64,000 nt of DNA from an uncultured Clostridia bacterium (GTDB taxonomy: Bacteria; Bacillota; Clostridia; TANB77; CAG-508), in contig CAPYID010000004.1 of NCBI GenBank assembly GCA_948739805.1, forward strand, positions 1,658 through 65,657, given 5' to 3'. Below are positions 22,307 through 58,089 of the stretch, one piece after another. The translations under genes and the position numbers were made by a program. The notes under the pieces were generated by a model. It worked only from the letters and a program-made list of their open reading frames with translations, was not told where the DNA came from and ran no database searches. The first letter of the stretch is position 1, and each line of letters begins with the position of its first letter.

Positions 22307-24023
<1,717 letters not shown>

Positions 24024-24040
24024 TAAGTAAATTGCTTGAA

Positions 24041-24070
24041 TGGCGGGCGATTGATAATCGCCCCTACATA
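24041..24070 (+). repeat. REP-like element, type 1, copy b (gcgggcgattgataatcgcccctacat)
   Basis: Perfect stem ggcgatt/aatcgcc plus CCCCTACAT. It lies in the groES-groEL spacer. Confidence 0.7.
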
Positions 24071-24090
24071 TATTTTTCTAATCTTATAAT

Positions 24091-28281: not shown

Positions 28282-28326
28282 GTTTATTCTTCTCCTTTTA
28301 CATTATTTTTAAGAAATTTCTTCGAA

Positions 28327-28356
28327 GTGCGGGCGATTAATAATCGCCCCTGCACT
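28327..28356 (+). repeat. REP-like element, type 1, copy c (gtgcgggcgattaataatcgcccctgcac)
   Basis: Variant flank CCCCTGCAC. It lies between proS and scpB. Confidence 0.65.
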
Positions 28357-28366
28357 ATATTTTATA

Positions 28367-28951
28367 TTATTCGACATTACCTGCTTTCTCACTATTTTGG
28401 ATAATATCGTCTATTACGATTTGTTGGTTTTCGTCAATTTTGTATTTCGGCAGTTCTGGTAATTCGTCTAAACTTCTATATCCAAACATTCTTAAAAATT
28501 CATCTGTTGTTTTGTATGACATTGGTTTACCTAAAATTTCAACTTTTCCTGCTTCTTCAATCAAATTATATTCTAATAGTTTATATATCATTGCATCTGA
28601 TGATACACCTCTTATTGTTTCTATTTCTGCTCTTGTTATTTTAGGATTATATGCTATTATAGCTAAGACTTCTAGTGCTGCTTGCGAAAGTTTGGGCTTA
28701 ATTCTTTTATCAATTATAGGATTAATGTATTCATAATATTCTTTTTTAGTACACATTTGATATCCATCATTCACTCTAATAATTTCTATCCCTCTTGATA
28801 TGTCTTTATATTCTTTGTTCATATCATTAATTAGTTCTATTATATCTTTTTCATTAATTTCTACAACTAGTTCCAATTCTTTTATTTTTACAACTCTTCC
28901 TGCACAAAATAATATAGCTTCTATTATTCCTCTTATTTTGTCTATTTCCAT
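28367..28951 (-). CDS. scpB: Segregation and condensation protein B
   Basis: 194 aa. IEAILFCAGRVVKIKEL... tandem winged-helix ScpB pattern. Confidence 0.85.
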   Translation of the reverse strand: MEIDKIRGIIEAILFCAGRVVKIKELELVVEINEKDIIELINDMNKEYKDISRGIEIIRVNDGYQMCTKKEYYEYINPIIDKRIKPKLSQAALEVLAIIAYNPKITRAEIETIRGVSSDAMIYKLLEYNLIEEAGKVEILGKPMSYKTTDEFLRMFGYRSLDELPELPKYKIDENQQIVIDDIIQNSEKAGNVE

Positions 28952-42360: not shown

Positions 42361-42420
42361 TTTATCTCCTTTTAAATTTGTGTTTATGGGGATGATTATA
42401 TGTTTTAAAGTTGTAGAAGA

Positions 42421-42565
42421 ACCCTCAGTCACTGCGTGACAGCTCCCTTAGATAAGGGAGCCAAGGTGGTAGAGCAGATTCTTGTCTCCCTTACTCAAGG
42501 GAGGTGGCAACTGAAGGCTGACAGAGGGTTTTAGAAGGCATAGAAGTGGATTATTCATCCCTACA
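42421..42565. other. GC-rich (~50%) structured element between the upstream terminator and spoIIIAA. It may be a ncRNA, a leader structure, or a repeat-derived element.
   Basis: Nested perfect hairpins ctccctta-ga-taagggag and ctccctt-actca-agggag lie inside an outer pairing aaccctcagtc...gacagagggtt. The segment ends with ...catccctacaaccccc. Confidence 0.3.
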
Positions 42566-42585
42566 ACCCCCAATTTATAAAATTA

Positions 42586-42642
42586 AAAATAAAAACCCAG
42601 CATATACATATTAATATGTATATGCTGGGTTTTTATTTTTAG
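42586..42642 (-). terminator. Bidirectional rho-independent terminator downstream of the radical-SAM gene
   Basis: 17-bp perfect stem cccagcatatacatatt/aatatgtatatgctggg with an A-tract and a T-tract on either side. Confidence 0.65.
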
Positions 42643-43547
42643 AACTCCCAATTTGGTACATATTCTTCTTCGTGTTCTCCTAATTCCTGAATATATCCAT
42701 TTTCTAAGTCTAATTTATATAAATAATTTTCTATCTCTTTATATTCTTCTTTTGTTAATTTTCTGTTTAAGTCGCTTTGCATTGCTTTATATGTTGGAAA
42801 GTATTGTGCCATTACACTTACATAAACTTTATTTCCTAAATTAGTTTTTATCCATTTTAAAATTCTTTTTGAGTTTTCTATATGATTTGGAAGTACTAAA
42901 TGTCTTATTATAATCCCCTTTTTTATTATTCCTTTTTCATCTATCTTTGGACTTCCAACTTGTTTATACATCTCTTTTATGGCTTTTGTTGCTATTTCAA
43001 AATAATTTTTTACTTTTGAGTATTTTTCTCCTAGTTCATTATAATAATATTTTAAATCTGGTAAGTATATATCTATATATCCTTCTAATCTTTTTATGGT
43101 TTCTATATTTTCATACCCATTTGAGTTATATATTATTGGTATATTTAATCCCTTTTCCTTTGCAATTTTTATTGCTTCTATTATTTGATATGTATAGATT
43201 GTAGGCGATACTAAGTTTATATTATTTGCTCCATTTTCTTGTTGCTTTATAAATATATTTGCTAATTCCTCGATTGTTATCTCTTTGCCTCTTCCCTTTT
43301 GACTTATTTCATAGTTTTGACAAAATATACAGTTTAAATTGCAATTAGAAAAAAATACTGTTCCTGAGCCATTTTCTCCACTAATACATGGTTCTTCAAA
43401 TTTATGTAATGAATATAAAGCAATTTTGATTTTAGCTGTTCCATTGCATCTTCCTACTTTCTCTTTTCTATTAATATTACATTTATGTGGACATGTATTA
43501 CAATTTTCTAGTTCTTTTAACATTTCTAGTATATTATCCTTTCTCAA
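42639..43547 (-). CDS. Radical SAM protein (PflA/activating-enzyme-like) with an extra N-terminal Cys cluster
   Basis: 302 aa. CNLNCIFCQN (a CxxxCxxC motif) plus an N-terminal CNTCPHKCN...C cluster. Confidence 0.65.
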   Translation of the reverse strand: MRKDNILEMLKELENCNTCPHKCNINRKEKVGRCNGTAKIKIALYSLHKFEEPCISGENGSGTVFFSNCNLNCIFCQNYEISQKGRGKEITIEELANIFIKQQENGANNINLVSPTIYTYQIIEAIKIAKEKGLNIPIIYNSNGYENIETIKRLEGYIDIYLPDLKYYYNELGEKYSKVKNYFEIATKAIKEMYKQVGSPKIDEKGIIKKGIIIRHLVLPNHIENSKRILKWIKTNLGNKVYVSVMAQYFPTYKAMQSDLNRKLTKEEYKEIENYLYKLDLENGYIQELGEHEEEYVPNWEF

Positions 43548-43582
43548 TCTTTTATTTCGAAAAATTTTATTATTCCATAACA

Positions 43583-43606
43583 GACGTGCAATGCACGCCC
43601 CTACAT
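43583..43606 (+). repeat. REP-like element, type 3, copy f (gacgtgcaatgcacgcccctacat)
   Basis: Stem cgtgca/tgcacg plus CGCCCCTACAT. It lies between the radical-SAM gene and rpsR. Confidence 0.65.
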
Positions 43607-46145: not shown

Positions 46146-46272
46146 GTTTTTTCAAAATATTGAAAAAACTTTGCATTTTTGCAAAGTTTTTAACATTTCA
46201 TATTTTGTTACTTTTTATATAAATGTTAGCAATATATTTTTGATGAATATAAATGTTTGAATTCTTATTTTA

Positions 46273-46298
46273 CGGACGCCCAAAGGGCGCCCCTACAT
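46273..46298 (+). repeat. REP-like element, type 2, copy g (cggacgcccaaagggcgcccctacat)
   Basis: The core is identical to copy a. It lies between the DUF4143 ATPase and mutS. Confidence 0.7.
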
Positions 46299-52237: not shown

Positions 52238-53206
52238 TTAAGATATCTCTATTCCAGCACTTGCATAACCAACTACTGTATTTAATAATGAGAGACCTGA
52301 AGATGTTGCAGAAAATACCATTAGTAAACGTGATTGTGCAGTAACTGGTATTGATAATCCTGTTGTTATTCCAGAACTTATATCACCAATAGATATTGTA
52401 CCAGTAAGTGAAGGTGTAAGATTAACAACTGCTCCTGGAATTGGAACAAATAAGTTATTAGGGGTACTTGATACATATAATTGGGCACGAATTGTTATAG
52501 ACGAACCAATAAGTGATAATGCAGCTGTAGTACTAAAGTAAGCACTTATTGAAGTAATTGTTCCTGCTCTTGGCATTGAAAATGCAAAGTTTGTTAGTGT
52601 TCCAGATGGATTAGTAAGGTCTATACTAGAACCTAAAACTGTTAAACCTGGTGCAGATGAACCAAATCCTATAAATGCTGGTATACCTGCTAATCCTCCT
52701 GCAATAGTAGTAAGTGAAATTGGTATTCCAGATGATAATGGAATAATACTAGTACTTCCATTTGCACCTGTTGCACCTGTTGCTCCTGTGGCTCCTGTTG
52801 GGCCTGTTGCTCCTGTTACTCCATCTGCTCCTGTGGCTCCTGTCGCTCCTGTTATTCCTGTAGCTCCTGTCGCTCCTGTAGCTCCTGTTGAGCCTGTTGC
52901 TCCATCTGCTCCTGTGGCTCCTGTTGGGCCTGTTACTCCATCTGCTCCTGTCGCTCCTGTAGCTCCTGTTGGACCTGTTGCTCCATCTGCTCCTGTCACT
53001 CCTGTAGCTCCTGTTGCTCCCTTGCACCCTCTAGGTCCTGTCGCTCCTGTTGCTCCTGTTGGATCTGTTACTCCAATAGGTTTACAACAGCATTCACAAT
53101 CATTATCCCATCCATTATTACAATCATCGTTACAGTCATTGTTACATTTACTTCTGAAGTCATCTTTTGAATTATTTATATTTAAGTTTTTAAAAAAACT
53201 CATAAA
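52238..53206 (-). CDS. BclA-like collagen-repeat (GxT) spore-surface/exosporium glycoprotein, with a Cys-rich N-terminal domain and a C-terminal beta domain
   Basis: About 37 GxT triplets ([13 protein letters not shown]...). N-terminal [21 protein letters not shown]. The likely true start is MSFFKN at 53206, with RBS AAAGGAGG 8 nt upstream. The longer track ORF starting at 53305 is probably an overextension. Confidence 0.7.
52738..53068. repeat. Tandem 9-bp-unit coding repeat (GxT collagen triplets)
   Basis: Repeated (a/c)cctgt(t/a)gc(t/a)cctgt units on the plus strand. Confidence 0.8.
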
Positions 53207-53276
53207 TATTCCTCCTTTACTATAAGAGTAATAATAATTACTCTTTAAATAGTATATGACTGTAAATGTAAAATTG

Positions 53277-54359
53277 TTATTCTTGAATATTTGTTTTGTT
53301 TTCAAAATAACGCTTATTATATAGAAAAGAATTAGAAAAAGGTTTTATCTCTCCTGCTTTATTATTATAATAAATAGCTTTTTCTACATCTCCCATTTTA
53401 TCATAGCAAACACATAATTGAATATAAGGAATATAACCACTATAATCTTCATTATAGAACCCACCATTATTAAGATTAGGTTTAACAGCAATGGCTAATT
53501 TGTACCAAAAAATAGCATTTTCTAATTGTTGTTTTTCTAAAAAATAATTGCCTAATTTACAAGATACTTCTGGTCTAGGTTTATCAAATTCAAAACTTCT
53601 AAATAAAGATAGCAGTGCATTATTTTCATCATTTAATTGTGTATAACAGTTTGATAAATCAATACATGCACTGATACAATTTTCACTCCATCCTTGTTTA
53701 GAGTTTAAGAAATTATTAAAAATCTCAATTGATTTTTCATATTGCTTATGATAATATAATTCTCTAGCATAGTAAAATTGTTGTCTTGCGTCAAGTGTAA
53801 TTCCTTCTTCTATCATTTTATTAAATATTTTTAAATTTCTAGATTTATCACTGGCATGTAGCTTTTTGTGTGATATTGCAATATCTGAATATATTACATT
53901 ACCATAAGGGGAAATAACCTCATGTATTGGACTTATCCATTGATAATTCTTTTTTCTTGATAATAGTCTTTCTCTATAATACGTAAGAGTTGGATTGTTT
54001 TTTTCATCGAATGCAACATTATATTTCATCATGACTATATCTACTGAAGTATCTAATGTCTTTTTTAATTCTCTTAATTCTAATAGGTCTTTTTCTAATA
54101 TGATATCATCAGCATCTAACCACATAATATAATCTTTTGTGGCTTTTGAAAATGAATAGTTTCTTGCCTTTGCAAAATCGTCTACCCACTCAAAATTGTA
54201 TATTTTATTTGTATATTCCTTTGCAATTTCTACTGTAGAATCAGTAGAACCTGTATCAACTATTATAATTTCATCCACTACTTCTTTTACACATTCTAAA
54301 CAGCGACCTATAACATCTTCTTCATTTTTAACAATCATACATAAGCTTATTTCAACCAT
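53277..54359 (-). CDS. Family-2 glycosyltransferase with C-terminal TPR repeats. It is a candidate glycosyltransferase for the adjacent collagen-like spore protein.
   Basis: 360 aa. N-terminal GT-A domain ([17 protein letters not shown]...[12 protein letters not shown]...DADD) and TPR-like repeats. Confidence 0.7.
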
Positions 54360-57608: not shown

Positions 57609-57862
57609 TTAGATTTTAACATTATTCATCTTACCATTCCACTCATCTAAAAATTCTTGAACAAAATTTCTCATAACTTCTGTTCTTTGTTTTCCTATTT
57701 CTTTTGCAGTTTTTGTATTCATATTATCTGCAAGTTTAAATAATTTATGATAAAAATGATCTTCATTGTTCTTTCTAAATGCCCTATGTCATGCCCACTT
57801 GATTCTTTTGAAAATAATTCTGATATTATCGGTCTTAATTTTTCTATATATTCTTCTAACAT
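57609..57862 (-). pseudogene. Decayed HD-domain phosphohydrolase (YpgQ/YedJ-like): the N-terminal 47 codons, a frameshift, and a short C-terminal remnant
   Basis: RBS AGGGAGGA, then ATG...MLEEYIEKLRPIISELFSKESSGHDIGHLERTMKI, then a stop. A second frame continues ...EFLDEWNGKMNNVKI*. About 100 internal codons are missing relative to this ~200-aa family. Confidence 0.4.
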
Positions 57863-57936
57863 TTTTATCCTCCCTCTTTATTTTGTTTACATTATATAAT
57901 ATAAATACAATATTTTCAAATTTTGGGTTGTTGGTA

Positions 57937-57990
57937 GGATTATATGTTTTAAAAATTATGCAAGATTATAATTTTAAAACATATAATCCT
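57937..57990. repeat. Perfect 19-bp inverted repeat with a 16-bp spacer
   Basis: aggattatatgttttaaaa-N16-ttttaaaacatataatcct, followed by ccctacaaac. Confidence 0.7.
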
Positions 57991-58089
57991 CCCTACAAAC
58001 ACAAATTTACCTCTATCCTGTTTTGCATTTAACATATATTTTTTTAATGAATATTATATTAATATATGGTTTAAAATGAGGTGTTATAT

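Follow-up and report, generated by a model that had tools for sequence, protein, structure and literature searches.

We analysed a 64,000-nt stretch of contig CAPYID010000004.1 (assembly GCA_948739805.1; hereafter the window) from an uncultured Clostridia bacterium and, within it, a GC-rich palindromic element next to the sporulation gene spoIIIAA. The window has ~27% GC and carries most of its genes on the minus strand; spoIIIAA is among them, so the element lies upstream of this gene. GC content rises to 0.46–0.50 at 42400–42549, against 0.13–0.34 in the flanks, and Pfam searches on identical metagenome contigs identified the neighbours as Radical_SAM and Spore_III_AA. Together with the terminator of the radical-SAM gene, these data confirm the ~50%-GC island that an initial annotation of the sequence had placed between that terminator and spoIIIAA. 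The extent of ~145 nt given there (42421–42565) proved too narrow, as the repeat unit spans 42374–42576. Non-repeat DNA between terminator and ATG amounts to only 12 nt on the terminator side (42577–42588), which BLAST alignments to copies in other genomes reach, and 13 nt on the gene side (42361–42373), where the element ends 4 nt from the spoIIIAA Shine–Dalgarno sequence.

The left half of the element aligns over its full length to the reverse complement of the right half, giving an imperfect palindrome of 203 nt that nhmmer matches to its own reverse strand (E 2.5e-7). Compared with shuffled sequences, RNA folding gave z = -3.8 on each strand, and folding of 42374–42576 as single-stranded DNA gave z = -4.35. 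Rfam returned no match anywhere in the window at gathering thresholds, only chance-level matches on the element when 42200–42800 was searched at E values up to 10, and no family overlapping the element at 15 carrier loci; spurious microRNA-like matches fell only on the terminator hairpin, and the score of Clostridiales-2, 12.7 bits, was below its threshold of 58.6. A tRNA or tmRNA identity was rejected, as ARAGORN found neither, although the central loop contains a stretch resembling GGTAGAGCA.

Architecture of the core and its shell

The element comprises a core nested in an outer shell (Table 1). The core comprises a ~50-nt unit, AACCCTC[A/T]GTCA...CTCCCTTnnnTAAGGGAGnCAAG, duplicated in inverted orientation; unit A consists of AACCCTC, a variable hairpin, GCTCCCTTnnnnAAGGGAGC and CAAG, and unit B contains a different variable hairpin and CCTCCC...GGGAGG. 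The two arms of the doublet are consistently of these different types, making it a heterodimer with a defined orientation. The consensus structure obtained with RNAalifold from 22 doublets in register has stem P1 enclosing P2, P3, P4 (with a loop of ~15 nt), P5 and P6, and a single strand of the core is predicted to fold as a five-way junction or, alternatively, as one long hairpin. A covariance model built from 18 doublets (R1) scored the window at 132.3 bits (E 1.2e-37) at 42411–42537 on the plus strand and at 73.9 bits on the minus strand; the best copies reach 149 bits.

The two near-identical perfect hairpins of the initial annotation are present as written, CTCCCTTAGATAAGGGAG at 42443–42460 within P3 and CTCCCTTACTCAAGGGAG at 42486–42503 within P5, and their gapped pattern occurred in none of 100 shuffles. 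The outer helix described with them is real, but only AACCCTC/GAGGGTT is conserved in the family; the added GTC...GAC belongs to the local hairpins P2 and P6. The closing pair of P5 in the window copy is a T-G wobble, the family form being CCTCCCTT-loop-AAGGGAGG, and the P4 loop is nearly identical in carrier locus L020 (GTGGTAGAGTAGATT).

Pairing extends to 93.8% of cells in the model-fitted alignment, compensatory change affects 26 of the 36 pairs and the covariation score is 0.257 against 0.03–0.07 in a control with partners slid, although these absolute figures lean high because the alignment is structure-fitted and includes both strands of palindromic copies. Whole-stem swaps can be seen in the raw sequence, from GTCAC/GTGAC to GGCAC/GTGCC to GTCGCA/TGCGAC. 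The asymmetry between G-T and A-C mismatches, a possible guide to the folding strand, is biased by the choice of the best-scoring strand and was not used.

Many copies carry additional conserved flanks, AAATTTGTGTTTGT-ATAAG on one side and TTAGAAG-ACAAAAATATAAATCATCCCCAC-AAACCCAAATTT on the other, and the window copy has shell flanks on both sides. The left-arm module also flanks cores at seven other loci (L014, L021, L035, L071, L097, L099 and L107), while copies at L111, L061, L101 and L081 consist of the core only and the window itself holds a shell that lacks a core. Since shell-only and core-only copies both exist, core and shell are separable modules. On the minus strand the right arm of the window copy reads GTAGGG-ATGAATAATCC, which resembles the head of a separate repeat family in the window, GTAGGGGCG-hairpin. 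The possibility that the shell arm GGGAGGATTATATG is what remains of a lost transposase gene, namely its ribosome-binding site and start, was rejected, as in L095 it is followed by an open reading frame (ORF) of only 21 codons and then by an unrelated 701-aa gene.

Table 1. Coordinates of the element, its parts and adjacent features in the window
Feature	Position	Strand	Remarks
Complete mosaic palindromic repeat element, 203 nt	42374–42576		Core nested in outer shell
Core: inverted doublet of two-hairpin units, predicted five-way junction	42420–42530	+	Canonical A-to-B orientation on plus strand, antisense to spoIIIAA
P1, 5' half AACCCTC	42420–42426	+	Pairs with GAGGGTT at 42524–42530; ~90% of cells paired across 146 sequences
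P2 hairpin GTCAC-TGC-GTGAC	42428–42440	+	Sequence varies in the family, pairing kept; 5 of 5 pairs compensatory
P3 hairpin GCTCCCTT-AGAT-AAGGGAGC	42442–42461	+	96% paired; compensatory change in 6 of 8 pairs
P4 stem CAAG/CTTG around 15-nt central loop GTGGTAGAGCAGATT	42462–42484	+	Loop gives the element its asymmetry
P5 hairpin TCTCCCTT-ACTC-AAGGGAGG	42485–42504	+	98% paired; compensatory change in 7 of 8 pairs
P6 hairpin, family consensus GGCAGCC-GAA-GGCTGAC	42506–42522	+	Window copy partly decayed: GGCAACTGAAGGCTGAC
Left shell arm AAATTTGTGTTT-ATGGGGATGATTATATGTTTTAAAG-TTGTAGAAG	42374–42419	+	92% identical over 36 nt to shell-only copy at 58008–57973
Right shell arm TTAGAAGGCATAGAAGTGGATTATTCATCCCTACAACCCCCAATTT	42531–42576	+	Minus strand reads ...TTGTAGGGATGAATAATCC, carrying the GTAGGG head
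-10-like box CATATAAT in left shell arm	42395–42402	-	Faces spoIIIAA, 34 nt upstream of ATG; candidate promoter element, read from sequence
Shell without core: AAATTTGTGTTTGTAGGGAGGATTATATGTTTTAAAA, 16-nt centre, inverted partner	57918–58008	-	
spoIIIAA start codon	42360–42358	-	ATG; PF19568 Spore_III_AA
spoIIIAA ribosome-binding site GGAG	42369–42366	-	
Bidirectional intrinsic terminator of radical-SAM gene, 20 bp	42589–42636		Outside the repeat; conserved in relatives

The shell-only copy is located ~45 nt upstream of a ribosome-binding site, and the ORF behind it (ATG at 57861) appears by eye to be a truncated HD-domain gene of ~53 codons. A canonical REP-like family (REP, repetitive extragenic palindrome) in the window, consisting of ATGTAGGGGCG and a GC-rich hairpin, has minus-strand heads at 46296, 43604, 40547, 29023, 24067 and 24006 and plus-strand repeats at 24022–24085, 28308–28371, 40502–40565, 43569–43606 and 46261–46298. 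Its stem sequence varies by copy, and all copies are intergenic and lie in the direction of transcription, one of them between spoIIIAC and spoIIIAD and two, judged by position, apparently between groES and groEL.

Dispersal across genomes and absence from the spoIIIAA site in relatives

We scanned a collection of one genome per GTDB species for 19 specified bases of the motif (CTCCCTTNNNTAAGGGAGNCAAG), for which ~4 chance matches were estimated from collection size. The motif occurred in more than 105 eight-kilobase blocks and in at least 143 units, concentrated in at least ~17 metagenome-assembled genomes (MAGs) of uncultured low-GC Clostridia (26–33% GC). Among the matches listed, CATKWX held at least 30 units, CANOPV 23, CARPYP 18, JAAWHY 14 and CALXRW 11, whereas five singletons in high-GC genomes correspond to the chance expectation; IMG/VR contained no match that would indicate phage carriage. 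Model R1 returned 224 + 37 strand-hits in the ~870 kb of sequence around the copies; the best 150 of these hits fall at no fewer than 84 different places.

Gene context was determined for 81 distinct copies, none of which lies inside an ORF; the neighbouring genes are co-directional for 35 copies, convergent for 10 and divergent for 8, and the other 28 copies are at block edges. Relative to co-directional genes, the canonical orientation was the same in 12 cases and opposite in 5. The neighbours, read from ORF translations, are housekeeping genes such as purC, rlmN, murG, ftsW and folT, and some copies begin at a stop codon or finish ~20–30 nt ahead of the next start codon. Units form 27 +/- pairs at 37–127 nt, four -/+ pairs at 89–140 nt and same-strand pairs only at 191 nt or more; they also occur as singletons and head-to-head pairs, and head-to-tail arrangements are rare. 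Nucleotide identity between the window and the carrier MAGs is 82–91% for the element and 68–80% for shared genes, which indicates either strong constraint or transfer between lineages.

Two individual contexts were recorded besides. MAG CALXRW01 encodes paralogous proteins of ~415–440 aa with a prepilin-like N-terminus (L027 5762–7036, L072 2600–3931, L083 2452–3721 and L115 2787–4034), each with a core copy in an otherwise conserved upstream region; the repeat was therefore either duplicated together with the gene family or inserted early into its promoter region. At L048, a core copy (917–1043) is situated ~75 nt upstream of a THF riboswitch (1120–1217; RF01831, 61.9 bits) located ahead of the gene for an ECF-transporter S-component, and repeats can therefore adjoin the upstream side of genuine riboswitch leaders.

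The exact SpoIIIAA protein is present on eight metagenome contigs, and in the three that were read, the element differs from the window copy by one or two substitutions. More distant relatives were chosen by SpoIIIAA protein search as a graded identity series, and their contigs keep the order rpsF-ssb-rpsR-(radical SAM)-spoIIIAA...AH. At 85% (L005) and 84% (L007) SpoIIIAA identity, the gap between the genes is only 121 and 132 nt, respectively, and is composed of the terminator and an AT-rich stretch. Three further relatives, L004 (87%), L009 (80%) and L118 (87%), have unrelated GC-richer palindromic inserts instead, that of L118 being GTAGGGGC-hairpin, and in the closest relatives, L116 (92%) and L117 (89%), the contigs end ~50 nt ahead of spoIIIAA, within repeat-like, GC-rich sequence of another kind. 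Model R1 found no copy in L004–L010 or L116–L118, and neither BLAST, nhmmer nor the covariance model located a second core copy in the window or in ~100 kb of the relatives' spoIIIA loci. Exact insertion ends could not be read from a comparison of filled and empty sites, as the relatives' intergenic DNA is too diverged and the L116 and L117 contigs break there. The element is therefore a lineage-specific insertion at a site that has repeatedly accepted palindromic inserts; since each sister lineage has a different GC-rich palindromic insert, the spot upstream of the spoIIIAA ribosome-binding site marks an insertion hot spot for such sequences.

The different palindromes immediately upstream of this ribosome-binding site are at L004 9800–10000, L009 1380–1540, L118 9925–9965, L116 1–52 and L117 1–48, and the contig breaks of L116 and L117 at this spot are of the kind that assemblies produce at repeats.

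Interpretation, mobilisation and rival explanations

Taken together, the element probably belongs, as a single copy, to a family of palindromic repeats that are non-autonomous and intergenic and resemble REPs and their composite forms, REP doublets forming hairpins (REPINs) and bacterial interspersed mosaic elements (BIMEs), or miniature inverted-repeat transposable elements (MITEs), and not a spoIIIA-specific device. The family is repetitive, dispersed, modular and structurally constrained, and it is selfish or mobile-type DNA as opposed to sporulation-specific regulatory RNA. Among the identities proposed initially, a complex member of a repeat family was essentially right, the element being a mosaic whose outer module carries the GTAGGG head of the window's other repeats. 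An independent, locus-specific small RNA is contradicted by near-identical copies scattered between unrelated housekeeping genes, and a sporulation-operon leader by absence from the same site in relatives and by copies beside unrelated genes elsewhere. The initial annotation had also expected a repeat to combine dispersed copies with a lack of conservation and covariation; dispersal and lack of conservation at the locus were both found, whereas covariation among copies is strong and therefore marks a structured repeat, not a locus-specific RNA.

Searches for a mobilising enzyme and for insertion marks were largely negative. Neither strand showed a target-site duplication at the boundaries of 30 copies, where AT-rich flanks would allow for a duplication of 1–2 nt; no ORF is enclosed by a +/- unit pair, the genes between copies in the 8-kb blocks being housekeeping genes; and the ~870 kb around copies contained neither a multi-copy transposase ORF nor a full-length parent with the same ends. 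The only multi-copy protein family near copies looks by eye like a pilin-type surface protein with an FGE-sulfatase-type C-terminus and is not a transposase. Six-frame phmmer and jackhmmer searches of the same sequence recovered one Y1_Tnp protein (L020 1780–2436, minus strand; PF01797, E 6e-11) in MAG CARPYP01 (MGBC114284). The REPs that flank and interrupt this gene are of the GTAGGGGCAC...GTGCCC type, and core units do not flank it; the GTAGGGGCAC head-plus-hairpin family is also present in the window. This arrangement shows that the GTAGGGGC family is a true REP/RAYT system (RAYT, REP-associated tyrosine transposase) in the carrier clade, but provides no link between the core and its enzyme.

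In the L020 RAYT gene, one GTAGGGGCACATTGCATGTGCCC REP lies upstream of the start, and the ORF itself contains three more. These are in frame, with the last one close to the 3' end; translated as GAHCMCP-like peptides, they lengthen the protein to 218 aa. Such a gene corresponds to subclass 2.4 of Quentin et al. 2018, in which REPs are inserted in tnpAREP (PMC6006769).

REPs, REPINs and BIMEs are defined as extragenic multi-copy palindromes that form inverted doublets, carry at the hairpin foot either a GT[AG]G or a CGTC tag and, in the case of GTAG repeats, flank a RAYT gene (PMC6006769, PMC3733652, PMC5581495); the criterion for a REP is GT[AG]G located 0–2 nt 5' of the hairpin foot and a basal stem of 7–20 fully paired nt (PMC6006769). 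The present family shares with them short, GC-richer intergenic palindromes in tens of copies per genome, inverted doublets of two unit types (comparable to the Y and Z units of BIMEs) in which head-to-head and tail-to-tail arrangements are common and head-to-tail rare, mosaic association with other motifs, stems kept by compensatory change, the lack of target duplication and a carrier genome that holds a RAYT with canonical GTAG REPs. It differs in that its core unit is formed by two adjacent hairpins and a 7-nt terminal stem half instead of a single hairpin, and in that the unit consensus, aAGAACCCTCnG-hairpin, has no GTAG or GTGG at its foot, GTAGGG being found only in the outer shell arm of the window copy, where a 4-bp stem follows. 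Further differences are that no RAYT flanked by core units was found in the sequence searched, and that conservation of the core extends across genera, in contrast to REPs, which usually co-diverge with their RAYT. The element works like a REPIN or BIME but does not belong among the canonical REPs.

MITEs with a structured interior, such as Correia/NEMIS in Neisseria, bcr1 in the Bacillus cereus group and RUP/BOX in pneumococcus, are often co-transcribed with adjacent genes and can create promoters or processing sites. Like the present element, they are 100–200 nt long, non-coding, located between genes and bounded by terminal inverted repeats; here, however, no target-site duplication or parent insertion sequence (IS) was found, and half-units and head-to-head dimers occur. 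The CGTC-tagged repeats of Di Nocera et al. 2013 (PMC3733652) are likewise REP-like, lack an identifiable dedicated transposase and occur predominantly as dimers, and their tag is sometimes degenerate to CCTC (PMC3733652); the unit described here starts with AACCCTC. Their own features, a single stem of 8–9 bp starting with A-T pairs, a loop of 4–5 nt and a CCA tail, were not seen in this family. The REP catalogues consulted contain no Firmicutes families: the survey of Di Nocera et al. does not mention Firmicutes (PMC3733652), Bertels et al. note only Group 1 RAYTs in Clostridia (PMC5581495) and Quentin et al. list Clostridia only under the IS200-like subclass 1.1 (PMC6006769). We found no published description of the core family in the literature, although coverage was limited and an earlier description is possible.

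In the window lineage the element inserted upstream of the spoIIIAA ribosome-binding site, in the gap that separates it from the radical-SAM terminator. The family may have spread through single-stranded DNA hairpin intermediates processed in trans by an enzyme of the HUH/Y1 type (RAYT or IS200-like). We favour this single-strand route because stems are kept by compensatory change, the dimer statistics are REP-like, target duplication is absent and a carrier genome encodes a RAYT with GTAG REPs, but the proposal is tentative, with a likelihood clearly below even.

Several findings weigh against the interpretation as a REPIN/BIME- or MITE-like repeat. No transposase was detected beside a core copy, the one RAYT recovered is part of another REP family, the core unit is without the GT[AG]G or CGTC tag of canonical REPs, its clean 7-bp terminal inverted repeat is more MITE-like, and the 64-kb window has one core copy, multi-copy status being shown in the genomes of other species; moreover, the very strong covariation and a cross-genus identity above that of coding genes could reflect a selected cellular function. 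A classical MITE, that is, an internally deleted IS moved by a DDE transposase acting on its terminal inverted repeats, would explain the perfect 7-bp repeats AACCCTC/GAGGGTT in nearly all copies, the outer repeats AAATTTGKGTTT / AAACMCAAATTT of shell-bearing copies and an intergenic length of 110–200 nt devoid of coding capacity. These clean ends keep a possible DDE-type MITE in play, but the absence of target-site duplications, of a full-length parent and of a multi-copy transposase ORF in the ~870 kb around copies, the half-elements and head-to-head dimers that such an element is not expected to form, and internal stems kept by compensatory change that a DDE enzyme does not require make it unlikely. 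Slightly better placed, and still rather unlikely in our analysis, is a host-domesticated DNA or RNA module (a nucleoid-protein or gyrase site, an mRNA stabilizer or an RNase site) that would be under selection and not currently mobile. High conservation across genera, strictly intergenic positions that are often within operons, preserved stems and the precedent of REPs and BIMEs, some of which have functions in E. coli (PMC6006769, PMC3733652), are consistent with such a module, whereas its presence at a given locus is lineage-specific; it also overlaps the preferred repeat explanation more than it competes with it.

Explanations that assign the element an RNA product fare less well. For a multi-copy family of structured non-coding RNA genes, encoding trans-acting small RNAs or a catalytic or scaffold RNA with the five-way junction as product, one can cite the covariation, the identity between genera of 82–91% against 68–80% for coding genes, the ornate junction and a core of ~50% GC in genomes of 26–31% GC. 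Yet both strands fold equally well, copies adjoin stop codons and ribosome-binding sites with 0–30 nt to spare, singletons as well as head-to-head and tail-to-tail dimers occur as in REPs, and the copies are fused in mosaic fashion to other palindromic modules with inconsistent orientation to their neighbours, so that we consider this family of genes very unlikely. A cis-acting leader, riboswitch or attenuator through which the spoIIIA operon would respond to a sporulation signal is extremely improbable. Its appeal comes from a highly structured element directly upstream of spoIIIAA and downstream of a strong terminator, but the site is devoid of it in five relatives with 80–87% identical SpoIIIAA (L004, L005, L007, L009 and L118), and near-identical copies accompany unrelated genes of no fixed class in tandem, convergent and divergent settings and in both orientations. 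A palindromic sequence, moreover, confers no strand identity, Rfam has no match to it, and its alternative pairings are the simple outcome of inverted duplication.

Local effect and significance

With so little non-repeat DNA left between terminator and ATG (12 + 13 nt), any spoIIIAA promoter must overlap the element. Its most plausible position would be the outward-facing CATATAAT (42402–42395) in the left shell arm, and equivalent TATAAT-like boxes are present in the same shell module of other copies. This proposal of a repeat-borne promoter draws on geometry and the -10-like box; no match to a -35 box was seen, CATATAAT was not called by the promoter scan, and inspection by eye of the window and its relatives revealed no convincing -35/-10 pair for a sigma-E promoter that could be aligned across lineages. 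We regard it as possible, at slightly less than even probability. Alternatively, the element might be transcribed as a structured 5' leader of spoIIIAA. At this locus its influence probably ranges from neutral to mildly modulatory.

The identity values (82–91% versus 68–80%) and the pervasive compensatory changes lead us to keep open a broader reading, itself improbable, in which the five-way-junction core would represent a hitherto undescribed class of structured nucleic-acid elements under direct selection in a clade of gut Clostridia and not merely selfish DNA. Such a class could possibly take the form of a hairpin-dependent mobile element without RAYT-type tag or flanking transposase, which may move between genera, or else of a domesticated module whose outward-facing -10-like boxes and strong stems may rewire or insulate operons, including the essential spoIIIA; if the latter were true, the spoIIIA promoter would be repeat-borne.

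For the preferred repeat interpretation, the consequences are threefold. A false lead towards a sporulation riboswitch or small RNA is removed from annotation, and before these genomes are searched for non-coding RNA, similar GC-rich islands in them should be masked as repeats. An apparently undescribed REP/BIME-like family is added to mobile DNA from uncultured gut Clostridia, a group hardly represented in the REP surveys consulted; this family combines an unusual two-hairpin unit with a predicted five-way-junction doublet and shows neither a canonical tag nor a visible transposase. Finally, in the window lineage, expression of the operon for the SpoIIIA–SpoIIQ channel must start in repeat DNA or pass through it.

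Two further observations concern sporulation genes and a candidate spore-surface protein. spoIIIAB is apparently split into two ORFs (119 aa and ~54 aa) in the window (40890–41406, minus strand), in L004 (11112–11622) and in L116, L117 and L118; both ORFs match PF09548 in the relatives, and L009 has a single 169-aa gene. The split could represent a frameshift, a programmed event or a lineage-specific division of the gene. At 52238–53305 (minus strand), an ORF contains a 9-nt tandem array (52712–53106) encoding ~40 collagen-like G-x-T triplets, and its product looks like a BclA-type exosporium or spore-surface protein.

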